Source of the DNA: Thermoproteota archaeon | GTDB taxonomy: Archaea > Thermoproteota > Thermoprotei > Thermofilales > B9-G17 | Direction: 5' to 3' | DNA length: 64,000 bases | NCBI GenBank assembly: GCA_029258885.1 | Contig: JAPDJW010000009.1 | Location: forward strand, 1-64,000 | Part shown: one piece after another, positions 1 through 61,954 of the stretch | How the letters are laid out: each line of letters starts with the position of its first letter | How positions within the stretch are numbered: the stretch's first letter is position 1 | Translations under genes and position numbers: made by a program | The notes under the pieces: model-generated | What the model saw: the letters and a program-made list of their open reading frames with translations, nothing else | Told to the model about the DNA's origin: nothing | The model's database searches: none

Positions 1-1597
1 TTCCCGCAAACATTAAGTTTAGCTCCTCCCTCCATACAGCGGTAAGCGTTACAGGCTTATCTACAGTAAACGTGTACGTAGGCGATCTAGATACAATATA
101 GCCGCTTTCATCCATCCACCCCTCAAAAACCTTATTAAACGGCATACCACTGACAACCGTTATAGAAATAGATACTGTAGCAGTAGAGTTTTCATCATAC
201 CATCCAGCGCCACTCACACTCCCATACTCACTGTAGGCATCTATATAATACTGCCTCCTAAACATAGGATATAAGGTTACGTCTTCCTCCAAACATACAG
301 TTCTGCTTAACGTCGATACTCCATCGCTCCATCCAGTAAATACATATCTATAGTCACCGAATGAATATATTTCCTCAACAGTAACGTTAAAGCAACTAAA
401 GCTCAAAGTAACATTATTTCCATAATACTTAACATCATCAACGTAAAAGTAGAAGCCATCAAAAACACCTCCAAAAGCCAAAACACAGCCAAAAACATAC
501 AAACCAACACCTCCCGCAGCTAACATATTATTATCACTCCACGCTATACATCTAACCCAGCCTCCTGTTTTGTATTTCCATTTTAGGTTGCCGTCTGCAT
601 CAAAAACATAAACATGCTCGTCCCAGCTTCCCGCCGCAAGCAATCCATTGTTGCTCCATGCTATGCAGTAAACAGAGCCTCCCGTCTCATATTTCCATTT
701 TAGGTTGCCGTCTGCATCAAAAACATAAACGCACTGATCCTTGCTTCCCGCTGCTAGTAATCCATTGTTGCTCCATGCTATGCAGTAAATATAGCCTCCT
801 GTTTCGTATTTCCATTTTAGGTTGCCATCTGCATCAAAAACATAAACGCACTGATCCTTGCTTCCCGCTGCTAGTAATCCATTGTTGCTCCATGCTACAC
901 GCTCAACCCAGCCTCCTGTTTCGTATTTCCATTTTAGGTTGCCGTCTGCATCAAAAACATAAACGTGCCGATTATTGCTTCCCGCCGCAAGCAATCCATT
1001 GTTGCTCCATGCTACACACAAAATATAGCCTCCTGTTTCGTATTTCCATTTTAGGTTGCCATCTGCATCAAAAACATAAACGTGGCGGTCCCAGCTTCCC
1101 GCCGCTAGTAATCCATTGTTGCTCCATGCTATGCAGTAAATATAGCCTCCTGTTTTGTATTTCCATTTTAGGTTGCCGTCTGCATCAAAAACATAAACAT
1201 ACCAGTCGCTGCATCCTGCTGCTAGTAATCCATTGTTGCTCCACGCTATACACAAAATATAGCCTCCTGTTTTGTATTTCCATTTTAGGTTGCCGTCTGC
1301 ATCAAAAACGTAAACGTGGCGGTCACTGCTTCCTACTGCTAGCAGTTCGCTACTGCTCCATGCTACGCAGTAAACAGAGCCGCCTGTTTTGTATTTCCAT
1401 TTTAGGTTGCCATCTGTATTGAATACTAATATGTGTTTTCCTGTTGTTCCTGCTGCTAGTAGCCCGTCGTACCAGCTTAATGATGTGGCTGTTCCCATGG
1501 TTCCCGTAGTCCACTTAGGTTTTGGCTGAGCTTGAACAGTATGGAGCAGTATGATTACTATTAAGGCTGTTAGTAGGTATATTTTTACGTTTTTCAT
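1..1597 (-). CDS. Secreted WD40/PQQ-like beta-propeller repeat surface protein followed by an Ig-like (B-repeat-like) domain; 3' end runs off the window
   Basis: Manually translated minus frame: ATG at 1597 with AGGTGA SD upstream, MKNVKIYLLTALIVIILLHTVQAQPKPKW signal peptide, eight 39-aa units (DADGNLKWKYxTGG...AWSNNGLLAAG), then RQYYIDAYSEYGSVSGAGWYDE. Paralog of 59237-61954. Absent from the ORF track because no stop lies in the window. Confidence 0.9.
   Translation of the reverse strand, partial: MKNVKIYLLTALIVIILLHTVQAQPKPKWTTGTMGTATSLSWYDGLLAAGTTGKHILVFNTDGNLKWKYKTGGSVYCVAWSSSELLAVGSSDRHVYVFDADGNLKWKYKTGGYILCIAWSNNGLLAAGCSDWYVYVFDADGNLKWKYKTGGYIYCIAWSNNGLLAAGSWDRHVYVFDADGNLKWKYETGGYILCVAWSNNGLLAAGSNNRHVYVFDADGNLKWKYETGGWVERVAWSNNGLLAAGSKDQCVYVFDADGNLKWKYETGGYIYCIAWSNNGLLAAGSKDQCVYVFDADGNLKWKYETGGSVYCIAWSNNGLLAAGSWDEHVYVFDADGNLKWKYKTGGWVRCIAWSDNNMLAAGGVGLYVFGCVLAFGGVFDGFYFYVDDVKYYGNNVTLSFSCFNVTVEEIYSFGDYRYVFTGWSDGVSTLSRTVCLEEDVTLYPMFRRQYYIDAYSEYGSVSGAGWYDENSTATVSISITVVSGMPFNKVFEGWMDESGYIVSRSPTYTFTVDKPVTLTAVWREELNLMFAG
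510..1430 (-). repeat. Tandem 117-bp coding repeat array (8 copies)
   Basis: Core CCATTTTAGGTTGCC recurs at 578, 695, 812, 929, 1046, 1163, 1280 and 1397, an exact 117-bp period. Some ~60-bp stretches are identical between neighbouring units. Confidence 0.95.
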
Positions 1598-2042
1598 ATT
1601 CACTTCACCTTACATCATAATATTGCTTCTTGAGTATATATTTTTTCTTGTTCTCTTTTTCTTATAATTTTTAGAACTTTAGTGAAGGATTAATTATGAC
1701 GATATCAATTCTCTACTTAAAATACTGGTAATTGTTACTCAAAATTAAGCCCAGGGTATGCTTAGCTTAACTATAAATTTTGATAAACCAATTATAGTAT
1801 TATACATTTATATAATATTTTATGTCCGAGTGTTTTTTAAAATCTTGAATTTAATTCGTAGATGTAGATATGTTACTGAAGCGTAATTTATGATAAGGTA
1901 GGGGTCTTTTGAGAGGCTGAAGAGTTTCTGCATATGTAGTGAAGATGTTTAATAAATCTTTAGCACTAATATATTATTTTAACTATTTATTTAATATCCT
2001 AAAAGTTTGGGATAGTTAAATTATAAAAAGATAAAATTAAGG

Positions 2043-3353
2043 CTATTTAACTCCGCTGATGTTTACATTACCGAAGACTATTGATGGAGTAATAATTCTG
2101 CCGACGATCGTCTGATCCGACCCGATTTCCACTATATTCCTAATCATCTCGAATATGTTTCCCGAAATCATTCCCCACCTTACCGGGTACTTTATTTCAC
2201 CGTTCTCTATTAGGAAGGCGTTTCTAAGCTCTGCACTGAAGTCTCCTGTAACGAAGTTAAGGAAGGATGGAGGTATTCTAGGAACCCATAGCCCTTTATC
2301 AACTTTACCTATAAGCTCCTCGAGGTTTTTCGTTCCAGGGTTAACTATGAAGTTTGTGGCTGTAATCGATGGGAGAGGCCTTCTAAACGATGCATTGCCC
2401 GTTAGCTCGGCTCTAAGTAGCCGTGCCGTATAGCTGTCGTAGAGGTAGTTTTTCAGTACCCCATTTTCGATAACCGTTTTCCTCTTCATAGTACATCCCT
2501 CCCCATCATAGGGGGCTGAGCCAACACCCCTACTTAATGTGCCGTCATCTACTATGGTTAGCTTCTCGGATGCAACCTTCTCATTAAGCATGCCAGTAAA
2601 TCTCGATCTCCTCCTCCTCACATTGTCGGCGTTTACCGCATATATTATACCTTGGAAAATATCAGCTACAGCATCAGATCCAAGAATTACGGTACCCTTA
2701 AACGGCTCCACCCTCCTAGGCTCGGAGGTATCCACCGCTATCCTTGATGCATATTCAACCAGGTTAACAACATCCAAATCATCGAGGAAAGTGCTTGACC
2801 TATACAGATACATCTCTGATGAGCCTTTCCTGCTTGCAAGGGTAATGTTGATGTAGGCTCTCGTCTTATCGTAGCTAAAACATACGCCTTCACTATTGAC
2901 GAGCTCCCTATAGGATGTGGATAAGCTCAGCTCACACAACACTATATCGGCGCCAGACCTATTAGCTGTCTCCACTATTTCGAGGCCAAGATTAATATTT
3001 TTATCGCTTGATATTTCAGCTATTTCATCGTCGAATATCTCCTTAACATCAGCTGGAGGCATCGGTGATAGCAAGCTTTCGAAATTTGGATCCCTCTCAC
3101 TAGCTTTAGCCAGCGATATGCTCTCGTCAACAGCCTTCTCCACGAGTCTATCGAGCTGGCCGTATACTGAAGCTAATCCTACCCGTTTATCAATTATAGA
3201 CATAACCCTAAGAGAGTTGGAGGAGCTACGCTCAACTACAGGGATTCTATTACCCTCTATAATTAGCCTAATTCTCCTCGACCTAGTGACGTATGCCTCG
3301 GCCTGTTCAGCGCCCATTTTAACGGCAAGCTTAACAGCTTTATCTGCAATCAT
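2043..3353 (-). CDS. pmbA: TldE/PmbA family protein (non-catalytic partner)
   Basis: TldD/PmbA fold motifs (DDGT...YDGEG, GDFS, ITPS), no HExxH; coupled to upstream TldD. Confidence 0.85.
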   Translation of the reverse strand: MIADKAVKLAVKMGAEQAEAYVTRSRRIRLIIEGNRIPVVERSSSNSLRVMSIIDKRVGLASVYGQLDRLVEKAVDESISLAKASERDPNFESLLSPMPPADVKEIFDDEIAEISSDKNINLGLEIVETANRSGADIVLCELSLSTSYRELVNSEGVCFSYDKTRAYINITLASRKGSSEMYLYRSSTFLDDLDVVNLVEYASRIAVDTSEPRRVEPFKGTVILGSDAVADIFQGIIYAVNADNVRRRRSRFTGMLNEKVASEKLTIVDDGTLSRGVGSAPYDGEGCTMKRKTVIENGVLKNYLYDSYTARLLRAELTGNASFRRPLPSITATNFIVNPGTKNLEELIGKVDKGLWVPRIPPSFLNFVTGDFSAELRNAFLIENGEIKYPVRWGMISGNIFEMIRNIVEIGSDQTIVGRIITPSIVFGNVNISGVK

Positions 3354-48098: not shown

Positions 48099-48896
48099 GT
48101 GGATGTGATCGATTTGAGGATAATTAGGCAACTTGAAATAGTTAAGCATTATATGAATGAGTTTACCCTATATATGAAGAGGAAAGAAGATATATATTCG
48201 CTTGAAAGATTAGTTGAGCTTTTAACACAATCCCTTCTAGACTTAGGAGCTATGTATTTAGTAGCTGTTGGAGAAGCTAAACCCGACACCTATAGGGGCG
48301 TTATTAGGAGTTTTGCGGAGAGGGTTGGTTTAGATAGCAGGCAGAGGACTTTTCTAGAGGAGCTGGCAGGATTTAGAAATATTCTAGTACATAGATATGC
48401 TGAGATAGATAGAGAGGTCGAGCTAGTAGCATTTAAGGAAATACTAGATAAAATTCCTGAAATAGTTAAAGCTATAGGCGATTTCCTAGAGAAGGCGGAA
48501 GTGGGTCCAACGATTTCTGATTTAGAGGTTAAGTTGAGTAAAGTCTTTAAGAGGCATGGAGTTAGGTATGCCGTTGTCTTCGGCTCTATAGCTAGACAAG
48601 GCCATGGTAGAGATATCGACATAGCTGTTTCATGGAATATAGATAGCATGTTAAAGCTTGGACGGCTTTTAGTGGATATCGCTGATGCACTAAACGTTCA
48701 CGAGGACACGATAGACCTGGTTCACATAGAGTCAGCACCGCTATCCCTTATTAAGTCAATAATAGAGGATGGCAAGATAATATATGGAGATAGAGATATC
48801 GTACTTAAGGAGCTAACAAAATACTACCTAGAATATCTGGATGTAAACGAGACCTACAGGTACGTTAAGGATGTGCTGAAAAAACCTTATAGCTAG
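48099..48896 (+). CDS. Fused DUF86/HepT-type HEPN RNase and minimal nucleotidyltransferase
   Basis: GFRNILVHRY (RX4HXY) in the N-terminal half; VFGSIAR...DIDIAV and IDLV in the C-terminal half. Confidence 0.85.
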   Translation: MDVIDLRIIRQLEIVKHYMNEFTLYMKRKEDIYSLERLVELLTQSLLDLGAMYLVAVGEAKPDTYRGVIRSFAERVGLDSRQRTFLEELAGFRNILVHRYAEIDREVELVAFKEILDKIPEIVKAIGDFLEKAEVGPTISDLEVKLSKVFKRHGVRYAVVFGSIARQGHGRDIDIAVSWNIDSMLKLGRLLVDIADALNVHEDTIDLVHIESAPLSLIKSIIEDGKIIYGDRDIVLKELTKYYLEYLDVNETYRYVKDVLKKPYS

Positions 48897-56673: not shown

Positions 56674-57600
56674 TTATTGTAGAAACCTAGTAATTTCATT
56701 AAGCATGGTCTTAAGCCTATTGTATAGCTCTTTAGCTTTATTCAGAATCTCTCTAGACTTAGAGGGATTAGACTTAATACGGTCGATATAGTTTTTAAGT
56801 TCCTTGATGCCCTTAGAGACCTCAAGCAGAAGGACTCCAGCCTCCTCAATACACTTCAAATCATCCAAATCCATAGATGATAAAGCATTATACGATGCAT
56901 ATGACAAAAACACATCCCTAAATCCAACATAATCCCCATAAAGCTCATCAACCATCCTCTCAATAGCTTCAGCTGCATTAACAATCCTAAAAACATTCCT
57001 TATAGCCTTAGAGGAAAACCTAGCTCCATCACGCTCCAAAACAACAACAGCATCATACAAGCCACTGAGAGCATCAGAGGGAATAACCCACCTAAAATCA
57101 ATAGTGGCCTCACACTCCCCAGCCCTAAATTGCTTACCAGAAGTACAGTAACGCCTATCATTTGAATGAACAAAGCAAACGTAAACAACACCTCTAACCC
57201 TCTTAGCACAACGTAACTTAATAGAAATCTCAACAATGTCACCAGCGAAAAACTCACCGCCAGAAACCTCAAACCCAGAAACCAAAAATAAGGATCTATG
57301 CAAAACCCAAGAAATAGCATAGACAAACAAAGAAAAACCAACAATAAACCAAAAATACCGAGAAACAAAGCACATAAGCCAACCACCACAACAATCGAAG
57401 ATATAAACGCAATTATCTGTGCTTCCTACAGCCAGTAATCCGTTATTGCTCCATGCAACACGTTCAATAATGCCTCCTGCCCCATATTTCCATTTTAGGT
57501 TGCCATATGTATCAAAAACATAAATGTTATCATCGCAGCTTCTTACTGCAAGCAATCCGTTATTGCTCCATGCGATACATTTGACTGTGCCTCCTGTCAT
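56674..57600 (-). CDS. Two-blade WD40 remnant fused in frame to a TM + Ig-like + helical protein
   Basis: Two AWSNNGLLAV units, TM helix, W.IP.DA..G.Y Ig-like motif, helical tail. Alternative internal start ATG 57375 has a GGTGG SD. Confidence 0.6.
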   Translation of the reverse strand: MTGGTVKCIAWSNNGLLAVRSCDDNIYVFDTYGNLKWKYGAGGIIERVAWSNNGLLAVGSTDNCVYIFDCCGGWLMCFVSRYFWFIVGFSLFVYAISWVLHRSLFLVSGFEVSGGEFFAGDIVEISIKLRCAKRVRGVVYVCFVHSNDRRYCTSGKQFRAGECEATIDFRWVIPSDALSGLYDAVVVLERDGARFSSKAIRNVFRIVNAAEAIERMVDELYGDYVGFRDVFLSYASYNALSSMDLDDLKCIEEAGVLLLEVSKGIKELKNYIDRIKSNPSKSREILNKAKELYNRLKTMLNEITRFLQ

Positions 57601-59236: not shown

Positions 59237-61954
59237 TTACTTCTTTTTATTTATGAATTTATGTTTATGTCGGAAGATAATGTAAATAGCTATAGTAAGG
59301 ACTATTACTGTGGCTGATATGTAAATGTAGGGTGAGAGAGTTTTTCTCCATTTAGCCTCTATGGTCATGGGAGAGTTGACGGTAATGTTAAGCGTAGGGG
59401 AGCTTGTTGTCATTTTGCTGTTGATGTACCATCCCTCGAATACTATATCGTATGGGAAGCCAGGGTAATACGTAGTATTCACCTTTAATGAAATTATGGA
59501 TCCCTCATCGTACCATCCGGAGACTGAAACATAGCCGTACTCGGATACAACTTTAACGTAGTACTGCTTCCTCCACATGGCTTTAAGCGTGTAAGGTTTA
59601 TCCACGGTAAACGTAAGGTTTAGACTAGTGGATACAATGCTATTATTCACCATCCATCCAGTGAAAACCACCCTAGTATCATTTCCATAGTCGATTGTAG
59701 AGGGGGATAAACTTACCGTAGCGATAGAGTCTTCATCATACCATCCTGAACCCGATATATTACCGTATCTTGACGTAGCGTTAACGTAGTATTGTCTCCT
59801 AAATATAGGCTTTAAAAGTACGTTATCCGTTAAATTCACTATCCTGAATGTAGAGGTTGAGCCATCGCTCCATTTAATGAAAATATGCTTAGTGTTATTT
59901 ATTATATAAACTGGTTCAATAGATATATTGTAGCATCCCCTAGGCAGTATAGTGCAGGAGCCATAGCATTTTGCTCCATTAACGTAGAAGTAGAAGCCCT
60001 TAAAGACGTCGGTGAAGATGAGTTGAACCCCGCCGAAAACCCCGTAATAGTAGTCGCCGCCAAAAGCCAGTAATCCATCACGCCAACTAACCGAGTAGAC
60101 CCAGCCTTTCACCCAGTATTTCCACTTTAAATTACCATCCGCGTCGAAGAGATAAAGATAGCCATCACAGCCTCCAACCGCCAGCAAGCCATAGATATTC
60201 CATGCAACGCATTTAATACACTCCTCCGTCTCATATTTCCACTTTAAATTACCATCCGCATCGAAGACATAGACATAGTGGTCGCAACTACCCACTGCCA
60301 ATAGATTACTATTACTCCATGCAACACACCAAACCCACCCTTCTGTCCTATACTTCCACCTTAAATTGCCGTTTTCATCAAATACGTATATATGGCTGTC
60401 AAAGCTACCAACAGCCAATAAACCATTATTGCTCCATGAAACACACTCAACACGGCTATTAGTCTTATACCTCCATTTTAAGTCACCCTTCTCATTAAAA
60501 ACATAGACATAGTGATCATCGCTTCCCACTGCCAGAAGGTTATTATTGCTCCAAGCAACGCAGTAGATAGGGCCATTTGCCTTATACTTCCACTTTAAAT
60601 TGCTGTAGGCATCGAACACATAGACGTAACCATCCCAACTTCCCACAGCCAGCAGATTATTGCTACTCCACACCACGCATTCAACATGGTCCCCTGTCCT
60701 ATATTTCCACTCTAAACCGCCATCAACGTTAAAAACGTAGACGTAGTTATCCCAGCTTCCAGCAGCTAGCAGACCGTTACTGCTCCATGCAACGCATTTA
60801 ACGTAATTATCTACCCTATACTTCCATTTTAAACTACCATAGGAGTCGAAGACGTAGATATGGCTATCAAGACCGCCCGCTGCCAGCAGGCCACCACTAC
60901 CCCATACGATACAGGAAATAGAACCTCCTGTCTCATACTTTGTTTTCAATGCACCATGGCCGTTGAATATGTAGACGTAGCCGTCCCAGCTACCAGCCGC
61001 CAGAAGATCATTATTGTTCCATGCAATACATGCGATATCTCCTCCTGACTTATATTTCCACTTTAAATTGCCCCACGAATCAAACACATATACGTAATTA
61101 TTCCAGCATCCTACAGCAAGCATGCCGCTGTTACTCCATGCAAGACAGTAGACGGGTTCATCCATCTTACACTTCCACTTTGGATTACCCTCCGAATCAA
61201 TTACGTAGATGCAGAAATTGCTTCCTACAGCAAGCAAATTACTGCTACTCCACATAATACAGTAAATAGGTCTTCCCAACTCATACTTCCACTTTAAATC
61301 ACCACTGGAGCTAAGGACGTAGACACGTCCATTAAGGCTCCCAATAGCCACTAATTCATTGTTGCTCCATGCAATACGGTGAATAGGTCCATTTATCCGA
61401 TACTTCCATTTCAAATTGCCCTCAGCATCAAAGACATAGACGTATCTATCCCAGCCCCCAGCGGCAAGCAAACTACTGTTACTCCATGTAACACACTCGA
61501 TATCCTCCTCCGTCTTGTATTTCCACCTCAAATTACCGTAGCTATCGAATACATAGACGTAGTCATCATCGCCTCCAGCAGCAAGTAAATTATCATTGCT
61601 CCATGCAACATACTCAATGCATGCTTCTGCCCTATACTTCCACCTCAAACTACCGTTTACATCAAATACGTAGATGAAGCTATCCATGCTCCCCACAGCC
61701 AGCAGACCATCGTTACTCCATGCAACACATTCAATACGGCCCTCAGCTCTATACTTCCACCTTAAACTACCGTTTACATCAAGCACCAATATGTAGCCGT
61801 TCCTCGTCCCTACAGCCAATAGGTCATTATACCAGCTTAAAGTTAACGGCGTACCAAGTATCTCCACTATCCACATCGGCTGCGGCTGAGCATTCACAAT
61901 CTGAAGCTGCAAAATTACGAAAACAAAGAATATAGCTAATCTCCGCATATCCAC
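59237..61954 (-). CDS. Membrane-anchored WD40/PQQ-like repeat surface protein (16 blades, Ig-like repeats, C-terminal TM)
   Basis: Signal peptide, 15 G.LKWKY units plus an N-terminal blade, two QYY...YG...GWYDE domains, C-terminal TM and basic tail. Confidence 0.92.
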   Translation of the reverse strand: MDMRRLAIFFVFVILQLQIVNAQPQPMWIVEILGTPLTLSWYNDLLAVGTRNGYILVLDVNGSLRWKYRAEGRIECVAWSNDGLLAVGSMDSFIYVFDVNGSLRWKYRAEACIEYVAWSNDNLLAAGGDDDYVYVFDSYGNLRWKYKTEEDIECVTWSNSSLLAAGGWDRYVYVFDAEGNLKWKYRINGPIHRIAWSNNELVAIGSLNGRVYVLSSSGDLKWKYELGRPIYCIMWSSSNLLAVGSNFCIYVIDSEGNPKWKCKMDEPVYCLAWSNSGMLAVGCWNNYVYVFDSWGNLKWKYKSGGDIACIAWNNNDLLAAGSWDGYVYIFNGHGALKTKYETGGSISCIVWGSGGLLAAGGLDSHIYVFDSYGSLKWKYRVDNYVKCVAWSSNGLLAAGSWDNYVYVFNVDGGLEWKYRTGDHVECVVWSSNNLLAVGSWDGYVYVFDAYSNLKWKYKANGPIYCVAWSNNNLLAVGSDDHYVYVFNEKGDLKWRYKTNSRVECVSWSNNGLLAVGSFDSHIYVFDENGNLRWKYRTEGWVWCVAWSNSNLLAVGSCDHYVYVFDADGNLKWKYETEECIKCVAWNIYGLLAVGGCDGYLYLFDADGNLKWKYWVKGWVYSVSWRDGLLAFGGDYYYGVFGGVQLIFTDVFKGFYFYVNGAKCYGSCTILPRGCYNISIEPVYIINNTKHIFIKWSDGSTSTFRIVNLTDNVLLKPIFRRQYYVNATSRYGNISGSGWYDEDSIATVSLSPSTIDYGNDTRVVFTGWMVNNSIVSTSLNLTFTVDKPYTLKAMWRKQYYVKVVSEYGYVSVSGWYDEGSIISLKVNTTYYPGFPYDIVFEGWYINSKMTTSSPTLNITVNSPMTIEAKWRKTLSPYIYISATVIVLTIAIYIIFRHKHKFINKKK
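60060..61780 (-). repeat. Degenerate 117-bp coding repeat array (15 units)
   Basis: First and last WKY codons are 1635 bp apart (14 x 117 - 3; one unit is 38 aa). Confidence 0.9.

Follow-up and report, generated by a model that had tools for sequence, protein, structure and literature searches.

The DNA at the start of contig C5 of a Thermoproteota archaeon raises the question of whether an archaeal surface protein can keep the scaffold of a repeat propeller uniform and, at the same time, diversify one of its faces. The window analyzed here comprises 64,000 nt from the start of that contig, in a host genome of 26 contigs (2.10 Mb, 40% G+C, 99.89% complete). Gene A (P0001), identified from the open reading frame (ORF) list, its translation and Pfam, is one open frame on the minus strand (window 2-1603) of 534 amino acids (aa) up to the contig edge; its 3' end is cut, since the start of the window is the start of contig C5. 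Its product starts with a predicted signal peptide, continues with a propeller of nine repeats, and then has two domains resembling InlB B-repeats.

We propose, with a probability of roughly 0.58, that gene A encodes a young, anchored surface propeller with a uniform scaffold and one diversified, ligand-binding face. The host would be an uncultured archaeon of hydrothermal vents and the product a type-I protein of its cell surface, with, in order, a signal peptide, a PQQ-like/WD40-like propeller, a short InlB-B-repeat stalk, a transmembrane helix and a proline-rich cytoplasmic tail. One blade would have been amplified into exact 117-nt units, giving a young array, and recombination among the units and with a tandem paralog would keep the scaffold DNA nearly uniform. 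Four codons per blade (9 and 11; 26 and 28), placed around the mouth of the central channel on one face, would change fast: point mutations would first arise in these codons, and the variants would then be shuffled between blades and paralogs via invariant homology stretches of 36 to 57 nt. The variable face would be the ligand-binding surface, with a partner-cell surface, a virus or a polymer as candidate ligands. Three published sources are drawn on throughout (Pereira and Lupas 2022, PMC9218822; Paoletti et al. 2007, PMC1805685; and bioRxiv 10.1101/2021.04.12.439409).

Repeat anatomy and fold of gene A

The repeat region of gene A spans 467-1516 and holds nine repeats. The initial annotation had placed it at 510-1430 with eight blades, missing a degenerate N-terminal blade that precedes the eight regular units. 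This first blade (aa 30-67, KWTTGTMGTATSLSWYDGLLAAGTTGKHILVFNTDGNL; 1403-1516, minus strand, as all features of gene A) was recognized from the translation and by comparison with paralog B, and it is followed by blades 2-9, eight units of 117 nt/39 aa (467-1402), which were delimited by Tandem Repeats Finder, the translation and a per-codon table: blade 2 (1286-1402), blade 3 (1169-1285), blade 4 (1052-1168), blade 5 (935-1051), blade 6 (818-934), blade 7 (701-817), blade 8 (584-700), and blade 9 (467-583). Tandem Repeats Finder reported a single array at 559-1416 (period 117, 7.3 copies, 87% matches, 0% indels, score 1177), and the translation contains eight KWKY-initiated units at a spacing of exactly 39 aa. 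Nucleotide identity of the scaffold was 0.90 to 0.98 within blades 3-8 and 0.81 to 0.87 for blade 2, in line with the near-identical 117-bp units described earlier; for the patches it was 0.48 to 0.85 between blades. At the amino acid level, the seven full units (blades 2-8) had a mean pairwise identity of 0.81 (range 0.72 to 0.90).

The variation falls into two short patches per unit, defined from the per-codon table. Patch 1 (unit codons 9-12) lies at 1367-1378 in blade 2 and at 1250-1261, 1133-1144, 1016-1027, 899-910, 782-793, 665-676, and 548-559 in blades 3-9, and patch 2 (unit codons 25-29) lies at 1316-1330 in blade 2 and at 1199-1213, 1082-1096, 965-979, 848-862, 731-745, and 614-628 in blades 3-8; blade 9, the last unit, has no patch 2. 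All patch residues listed in the initial annotation were found in the translation, namely SVYC, YILC, YIYC, YILC, WVER, YIYC, SVYC, and WVRC for patch 1 and SSDRH, CSDWY, SWDRH, SNNRH, SKDQC, SKDQC, and SWDEH for patch 2. The last of these, for instance, is encoded by the reverse complement of 614-628 in blade 8, AGC TGG GAC GAG CAT.

Profiles and structure models place these blades in a beta-propeller. Pfam profiles matched the blades with 152.1 bits for PF13570 (cut-off 133), 114.5 bits for PF00400 (27), and 60.7 bits for PF13360 (27.6), so that the scores exceed the curated cut-offs for the PQQ-like families PF13570 and PF13360. The cut-off of PF00400 was exceeded as well, but the WD40 dipeptides GH and WD are replaced by GG and FD, the best score is that of the PQQ-like PF13570, and, judged by sequence, the blades sit on the border between PQQ and WD40. 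AlphaFold2 (AF2) gave a single-sequence model with a confidence (pLDDT) of 75 to 94 over aa 40-345 and, with a 36-row alignment, a model with a mean pLDDT of 90.1, a pTM of 0.84, and a pLDDT of 96 to 99 over eight blades (units 2-9). Foldseek returned 8-bladed propellers (e.g., 8prj, with TMt 0.92, a root-mean-square deviation of 1.7, and 38% identity) and also 8-bladed WD40 domains, and phmmer searches against the PDB gave 8prj (7e-68), Cake8/9/10 (1e-62 to 2e-64), the natural protein 3hxj (3e-38), and YxaL (7dxn; 6e-24). Of these, 8prj and Cake8/9/10 are designer propellers with eight or nine blades of this kind.

We then located the variable positions on this fold. DSSP applied to the two AF2 models placed strands in every unit at positions 39-5, 10-15, 21-25, and 29-33 and loops at positions 6-9, 16-20, 26-28, and 34-38. 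Because the WD40 profile aligns F33-D34 with 'WD', the strands run D, A, B, C in order. The variable positions are then 9, which ends the D-A loop, 11, within the residues 10-12 that begin strand A, and 26 and 28 in the B-C turn (26-28), with position 29 being less variable; a conserved V/I10 stands between positions 9 and 11, and a conserved D27 between 26 and 28. A four-stranded meander puts alternate loops on the same face, and the variable loops 6-9 and 26-28 therefore share one face. In the models, the opposite face consists of two loops with 0 non-synonymous differences among blades 3-8, namely A-B (SNNG) and C-D (DADGN). The face with the D-A and B-C loops is, by WD40 convention, the 'top' one, and the placement of the patches on WD40 top-face loops that had been put forward earlier agrees with DSSP of the two models and with the WD40 profile alignment.

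Substitution, mosaicism and turnover in the arrays

Proportions of non-synonymous (pN) and synonymous (pS) differences were obtained as Nei-Gojobori counts over all unit pairs, with codons 9, 11, 26, and 28 taken as core codons, for gene A and for its paralog B (C1:1422-4169; 16 blades; mean blade identity 0.76, computed on those of its 14 detected units that have the modal length of 39 aa). In array A, pN and pS were 0.033 and 0.257 for the 30 scaffold codons and 0.331 and 0.512 for the nine patch codons, and pN reached 0.502 at the core codons. In array B, the scaffold had a pS of 0.203, the patches had a pN of 0.275 and a pS of 0.159, and pN at the core codons was 0.461. Core pN thus exceeded scaffold pS by a factor of 1.96 in array A (codon bootstrap 1.23 to 3.52) and of 2.27 in the 10 full-length units of array B (codon bootstrap 1.38 to 5.18), and the core columns had the highest entropy in both arrays. 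Taken over whole patches, pN/pS was 0.65 in array A (patch 1: 1.09; patch 2: 0.45) and 1.7 in paralog B. With regard to the elevated dN/dS that the initial annotation proposed to look for, pN exceeds linked pS at the core codons of A and B, and the whole-patch ratio of A stays below 1. Because the whole-patch ratio is 0.65 in A versus 1.7 in B, the counts suggest, but do not prove, positive selection favoring diversity at the core codons.

Mosaicism was evident among the units. In blades 2-8 of array A, 40 of the 117 nt sites were variable and 21 were informative, and the four-gamete test failed for 129 of the 210 pairs of informative sites. The initial annotation had noted patches that are identical at the codon level in units lying apart and that are paired differently there, and blade 7 does combine the patches of two other blades: its patch 1 is that of blade 4 and its patch 2 that of blade 6 (0 of 15 nt differing in either case), with the middle scaffold also identical to blade 6. 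Blades 5 and 8 have three synonymous markers in common in codons 20-22 and differ in both patches, patch 1 is common to blades 3 and 5 and to blades 2 and 8 with one difference each, and an exact 38-nt stretch including SWDEH is common to blade 8 of A and unit 4 of B. Since convergent selection cannot explain the synonymous markers, exchange between units is the likely cause, unless chimeras were made during assembly.

A comparison between strains was possible through L021, an ortholog from a separate metagenome assembly that has the same architecture and other patches, and whose downstream 3.3 kb are 96.6% identical to the region after paralog B. Over the C-terminal 167 codons, L021 and gene A had a pS of 0.057 and a pN of 0.005; over the 134 array codons directly upstream, pS was 0.414 and pN 0.140 (patch pN 0.375, scaffold pN 0.063). 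On these sequences, either the array has turned over between close relatives or its units are not one-to-one orthologous. Because synonymous change in the array is also high between the strains, recombinational turnover must contribute, and not point selection alone. A fixed array among relatives, which the initial annotation had named in advance as speaking against diversification, was not what we found, as the L021 array differed strongly beside a near-identical C-terminal domain. No closer ortholog was present among 40 related genomes, where the best matches outside the own genome were 41 to 43% identical (G009 and G003); a scan of the genome contigs gave nine loci at 27 to 38% identity, all distant, and the close relative came only from the metagenome scan.

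Variation confined to short stretches of a surface-protein gene would also fit targeted hypermutation, with a diversity-generating retroelement (DGR) or a similar mutator writing the patches. We regard this as hardly credible here. No PF00078 reverse transcriptase was found in the 99.89% complete genome, in a search that was positive in 3 of 14 control genomes, and no template repeat was found other than the units themselves. Patch substitutions involve all four bases and not adenines only. With 0 PF00078 matches in its own genome, gene A was rejected as a DGR target.

Several points weigh against the reading of gene A as a propeller with a diversified binding face. The four core codons were chosen after the variation in A had been seen, so that B alone provides an independent repeat; in addition, the unit pairs depend on each other, and gene conversion lowers scaffold pS. 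Between the strains, patch pN (0.375) is about the same as scaffold pS (0.364), and the high array pS shows that the difference is not due to point selection alone, the units having turned over or being non-orthologous. A PHI-like permutation test on the 21 informative sites was not significant (0.578 against a permutation mean of 0.615, p = 0.20), and the earlier claim of a mosaic produced by exchange draws its support from the four-gamete failures and the synonymous markers. The modeled face assignment draws on DSSP and topology, the two AF2 models each form a ring of eight blades but omit different terminal blades, and unit number and order, taken from a short-read assembly, are provisional. 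Furthermore, the genes neighboring A (in the window and around B and C) gave no hint as to its function, and no partner gene was found among them.

The whole-patch ratio in A and the between-strain patch figures are compatible with neutral drift of tolerant loops. According to this explanation, gene A is a nascent propeller with a very young array, in which substitutions have been fixed only at the most tolerant loop positions, with no selection for diversity and no special binding. In the older arrays of paralog C (window 59237-61954, minus strand; 905 aa, 16 blades, mean blade identity 0.54) and of a further family member, L022 (mean blade identity 0.46), the variation reaches the bottom loops too, as gradual differentiation predicts, and continuous amplification and differentiation are a general behavior of the propeller fold (PMC9218822). 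However, in blades 3-8 the bottom loops are of similar length and carry no non-synonymous change, and the top-face codons have a pN of 0.36 to 0.59. Arrays A and B each have a core pN roughly double their linked scaffold pS, the L021 strain varies at the same positions as A and B, and Y, W and R together make up 15 of the 28 core residues in blades 2-8. We consider drift without selection somewhat unlikely on this evidence, and in the reading preferred here selection, rather than tolerance of change, would drive the variation.

The assembly itself could have produced the mosaic order and the odd number of nine units, in which case the true gene would have eight or 16 blades in another order. 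The genome is a draft of 26 contigs, with gene A on a contig break inside an exact repeat, and other family members have eight blades (paralog D; on C11, where it is cut, with the full form P0002 of 609 aa and a mean blade identity of 0.43) or 16 blades (B and C). This would also fit the eight-blade closure in AF2, and problems with the assembly of propeller genes have been warned of (PMC9218822). When k-mer contigs of four public vent/sediment metagenome runs (X1, X2, X4, and X5) were compared with window 1-3000, all of them broke inside the array. The pieces spanned at most about one unit, with summed depth not equaling copy number, whereas each of the four runs covered the flanks of the array and differed from them little or not at all. 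A junction from 1369 to 905 in X2 (with TCT between) was considered as a variant and rejected, being in phase and of a WVRC-type unit already present in paralog B and blade 9. Nevertheless, adjacent patches are 36 to 57 nt apart, a spacing that fits within one read, and the patch pairings within and between neighboring units are therefore likely real. The independent metagenome assembly of L021 has the same architecture with other patches, and the pattern of variable sites is independent of unit order. In addition, blades derived from 3hxj, the natural protein of solved structure closest to gene A, crystallize as 8- and 9-bladed rings, and one nine-repeat design made of them folds as eight blades (bioRxiv 10.1101/2021.04.12.439409). 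We therefore judge an assembly origin of the pattern to be quite improbable.

Relation to known repeat propellers

Highly repetitive propellers have been defined by consecutive blades with >60% pairwise identity (PMC9218822). Arrays A (0.81) and B (0.76) lie above this threshold, and C, D, and L022 lie below it. Further features shared with that class are independent amplification in close genes, blade numbers off the family norm, an ambiguity in AF2 between eight and nine blades, and propeller fragments nearby (here at window 56674-57600). The locus thus fits the class of highly repetitive, recently amplified propellers. Both the PQQ family and archaea occur in that survey, with the archaeal cases mainly in Euryarchaeota, and its supplementary tables may list proteins like gene A; its main text does not treat extracellular anchoring or the position of variable sites, both of which are proposed here for gene A.

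The best matches in sequence and fold, 3hxj, YxaL (7dxn), and the designer proteins Cake, Scone and Bagel, have the blade of approximately 40 aa and the LKWKY...TGG motif in common with gene A, and 3hxj-type propellers show the same plasticity between eight and nine blades (bioRxiv 10.1101/2021.04.12.439409). The natural PQQ-like relatives have divergent blades, with the consensus SSPAIG.DGTIYVGS compared to C.AWSNNGLLAAGS in gene A. Hypervariable positions in each blade were not found reported for 3hxj, YxaL or the designer propellers in the literature consulted, and no prior description of an archaeal surface propeller with hypervariable positions was found in the literature searched. Distant bacterial or metagenomic homologs, P0009 and P0005, have B-repeat and copper-amine-oxidase-like domains and runs of identical PQQ-like blades. 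Most of the variation in these blades falls behind TG and in GSxDxY, which are also the two variable places of gene A. From these sequences, the variable-face pattern may be common in the PQQ-like blade family.

The initial annotation had likened the array to the HNWD proteins of Podospora anserina (het-d, het-e), in which the selected codon pairs are 7/9 and 25/27, each flanking a conserved codon (PMC1805685). The layout is similar in gene A, with the pairs 9/11 around V/I10 and 26/28 around D27. The two systems also resemble each other in near-identical repeat DNA that is kept uniform by exchange within and between paralogs, in reshuffled repeats and variable repeat number, and in fast codons that lie on the interaction face in HNWD and, in the models, on one face here. 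However, HNWD proteins are cytoplasmic STAND NTPases (HET, NACHT and WD) that trigger cell death, whereas the gene A product would be extracellular and membrane-anchored. The GH and WD of HNWD stand against 39-aa units with GG and FD in gene A, repeat-induced point mutation (RIP) does not apply, and positive selection has been formally shown in HNWD, compared to pN/pS ratios only for gene A. Pfam matched 29 families to gene A, and the best 25 of them include no HET or NACHT domain; the protein thus lacks an NTPase or effector part. The likeness therefore holds for the codon-pair layout and the concerted repeats and not for family membership, domain content or cellular location, and the earlier interpretation of gene A was, as a whole, largely sound but over-specific.

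A wider proposal, which we consider unlikely, is that A, B, C, D, and a two-blade fragment form an extracellular archaeal recognition repertoire that diversifies by the logic of HNWD, with the uniform repeat scaffold as substrate for recombination, specificity residing in the four selected codons of each blade, and cassettes exchanged between paralogs. If true, it could serve to tell partner cells apart or to evade viruses for which the protein is the receptor, and the repertoire would be an extracellular prokaryotic counterpart of a eukaryotic mechanism of non-self recognition. The main reading of gene A, for its part, has a receptor precedent in L010 (G009:C5:115266-119237), from a relative of the same taxonomic order, in which a homologous 8-blade propeller is fused to four PEGA domains, a transmembrane segment (assigned by eye), and a kinase domain (PF00069, with 78 bits where the cut-off is 31.7). 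This G009 gene, an archaeal receptor kinase, couples such a propeller to a Ser/Thr protein kinase, so that propellers of the gene A type serve as receptor ectodomains in its kin.

Recently amplified propellers are well cataloged, and the link between their variable positions and function comes for the most part from STAND proteins in the cytoplasm of fungi and bacteria. The style of repeat evolution in gene A is known, but its setting, extracellular and archaeal, is unusual; gene A is set apart by its predicted extracellular, anchored placement in an archaeon, by two young arrays side by side, and by direct evidence of turnover at the strain level. With older paralogs in the same genome and a strain in which the array has turned over beside a nearly unchanged stalk, the locus is a compact natural system. 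It opens the questions of whether repeat evolution with a uniform scaffold and a variable face is used for surface recognition in archaea, and of how short-tract recombination shapes propeller arrays in thermophiles. For annotation it advises caution, as blade number and order are uncertain in short-read metagenome-assembled genomes and arrays of the gene A type cause contig breaks.

Stalk, anchor, paralogs and neighboring genes

The N-terminus of gene A, with a basic start, a hydrophobic core, a VQA motif and a helix at aa 3-24 in AF2, is a predicted signal peptide (aa 1-25, ...HTVQA/QP; 1529-1603); an alternative ATG start lies at aa 3. Behind the blades, the earlier description had Ig-like stalks, where Pfam assigns divergent InlB B-repeat domains: one at aa 459-525 (29-229) matched PF18998 (Flg_new_2, InlB B-repeat) with 27.3 bits against a cut-off of 23.6, and paralog B scores 32.2 bits with the same family. 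A second, weaker B-repeat-like module (aa ~376-455, ~239-476) was recognized by eye from its likeness to the first module and to paralog B.

The cut 3' end could be followed across the contig break. The reverse-complemented start of C5 and the start of C1 overlap by 4 nt, the joined sequence is an exact match to the corresponding stretch of paralog B, and the first 127 nt of C1 are identical to the tail of paralog B. The simplest reading is that gene A continues into C1, the assembler having broken inside an exact repeat, and its tail would then consist of a transmembrane helix, RKK, a poly-Pro run, and DEWY. In the L021 ortholog, the metagenome contig holds the complete C-terminus, a transmembrane helix followed by RRKRSPPAQPSPPPPPDEWY. 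The protein, earlier called secreted, is therefore membrane-anchored in L021 and probably so in gene A.

We also compared the C-terminal tails of the family (L021:903-1022, C1:1-120, C1:4053-4169, and the C-termini of P0002 and L022). Short, proline-rich cytoplasmic tails were found, reading PPPQPPPPPPPPPDEWY, SPPAQPSPPPPPDEWY, PPPPPPPGEETE, and PPPPPPPS; a C-terminal DEWY is common to A/B and the L021 ortholog, and paralog C has no proline run. The proline-rich sequences and the kept DEWY hint at a partner that binds on the cytoplasmic side. The C-terminal B-repeat module also occurs behind different N-terminal parts in at least six other genes of the host genome (C1:70594-72130, C12:36-806, C7:52386-53048, C4:147646-148362, C5:120808-121197, and C5:133884-134270; tblastn, 30 to 63% identity to the last 150 aa of paralog B), and stalk plus anchor seems, from these matches, to be a common display module of the host archaeon.

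Paralog B, one of four family members (A to D) in the host genome, probably follows gene A 1.3 kb downstream in the same orientation. The two genes share 146 identical nt at the 5' end (the end of the signal peptide and blade 1) and 126 identical nt at the 3' end, the latter probably extended by 127 nt via the start of C1 to at least 253 nt. Their arrays are only ~77% identical, with the consensus WSNNG/DADGNL in A and WSSDG/NAEGNL in B. Identical ends with diverged middles suggest gene conversion between the tandem paralogs, and the sequence identity between A and B is the likely cause of the contig break. The repeats evolve in concert, both inside each array and across the paralogs, as seen in the per-array consensus, the identical flanks and the exact sharing of the 38-nt patch stretch. 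Paralog B also contains a three-unit segmental duplication, with units 7-9 resembling units 10-12. In paralog C, the blades are followed by B-repeat-like modules and a transmembrane anchor, recognized by eye; Pfam listed no PF18998 match for it. The two-blade ORF at 56674-57600 (minus strand) has a hydrophobic N-terminus, two blades of the family, and then unrelated, partly hydrophobic sequence. One of its blades reads IIERVAWSNNGLLAVGS, close to blade 6 of gene A, and the ORF may be either a propeller fragment or a possible donor cassette.

Among the neighboring genes, TldD/PmbA and an AIR-synthase-like gene lie upstream of A in the window, B has an ABC-2 transporter on its downstream side, and an AAA_14/DUF4143 ATPase adjoins paralog C. 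Genes of the window match the NCBIfam archaeal TldD model and a TrpY-family regulator, which, like the coverage of the flanks by the public vent or sediment runs, agrees with a hot-vent archaeon as host. Finally, a single ORF at window 48099-48893 (plus strand) matches the NCBIfam models of the HepT toxin (aa 11-118) and the MntA antitoxin (aa 152-251), and could be a type VII toxin-antitoxin pair fused into one gene or, alternatively, two genes joined by ORF calling.

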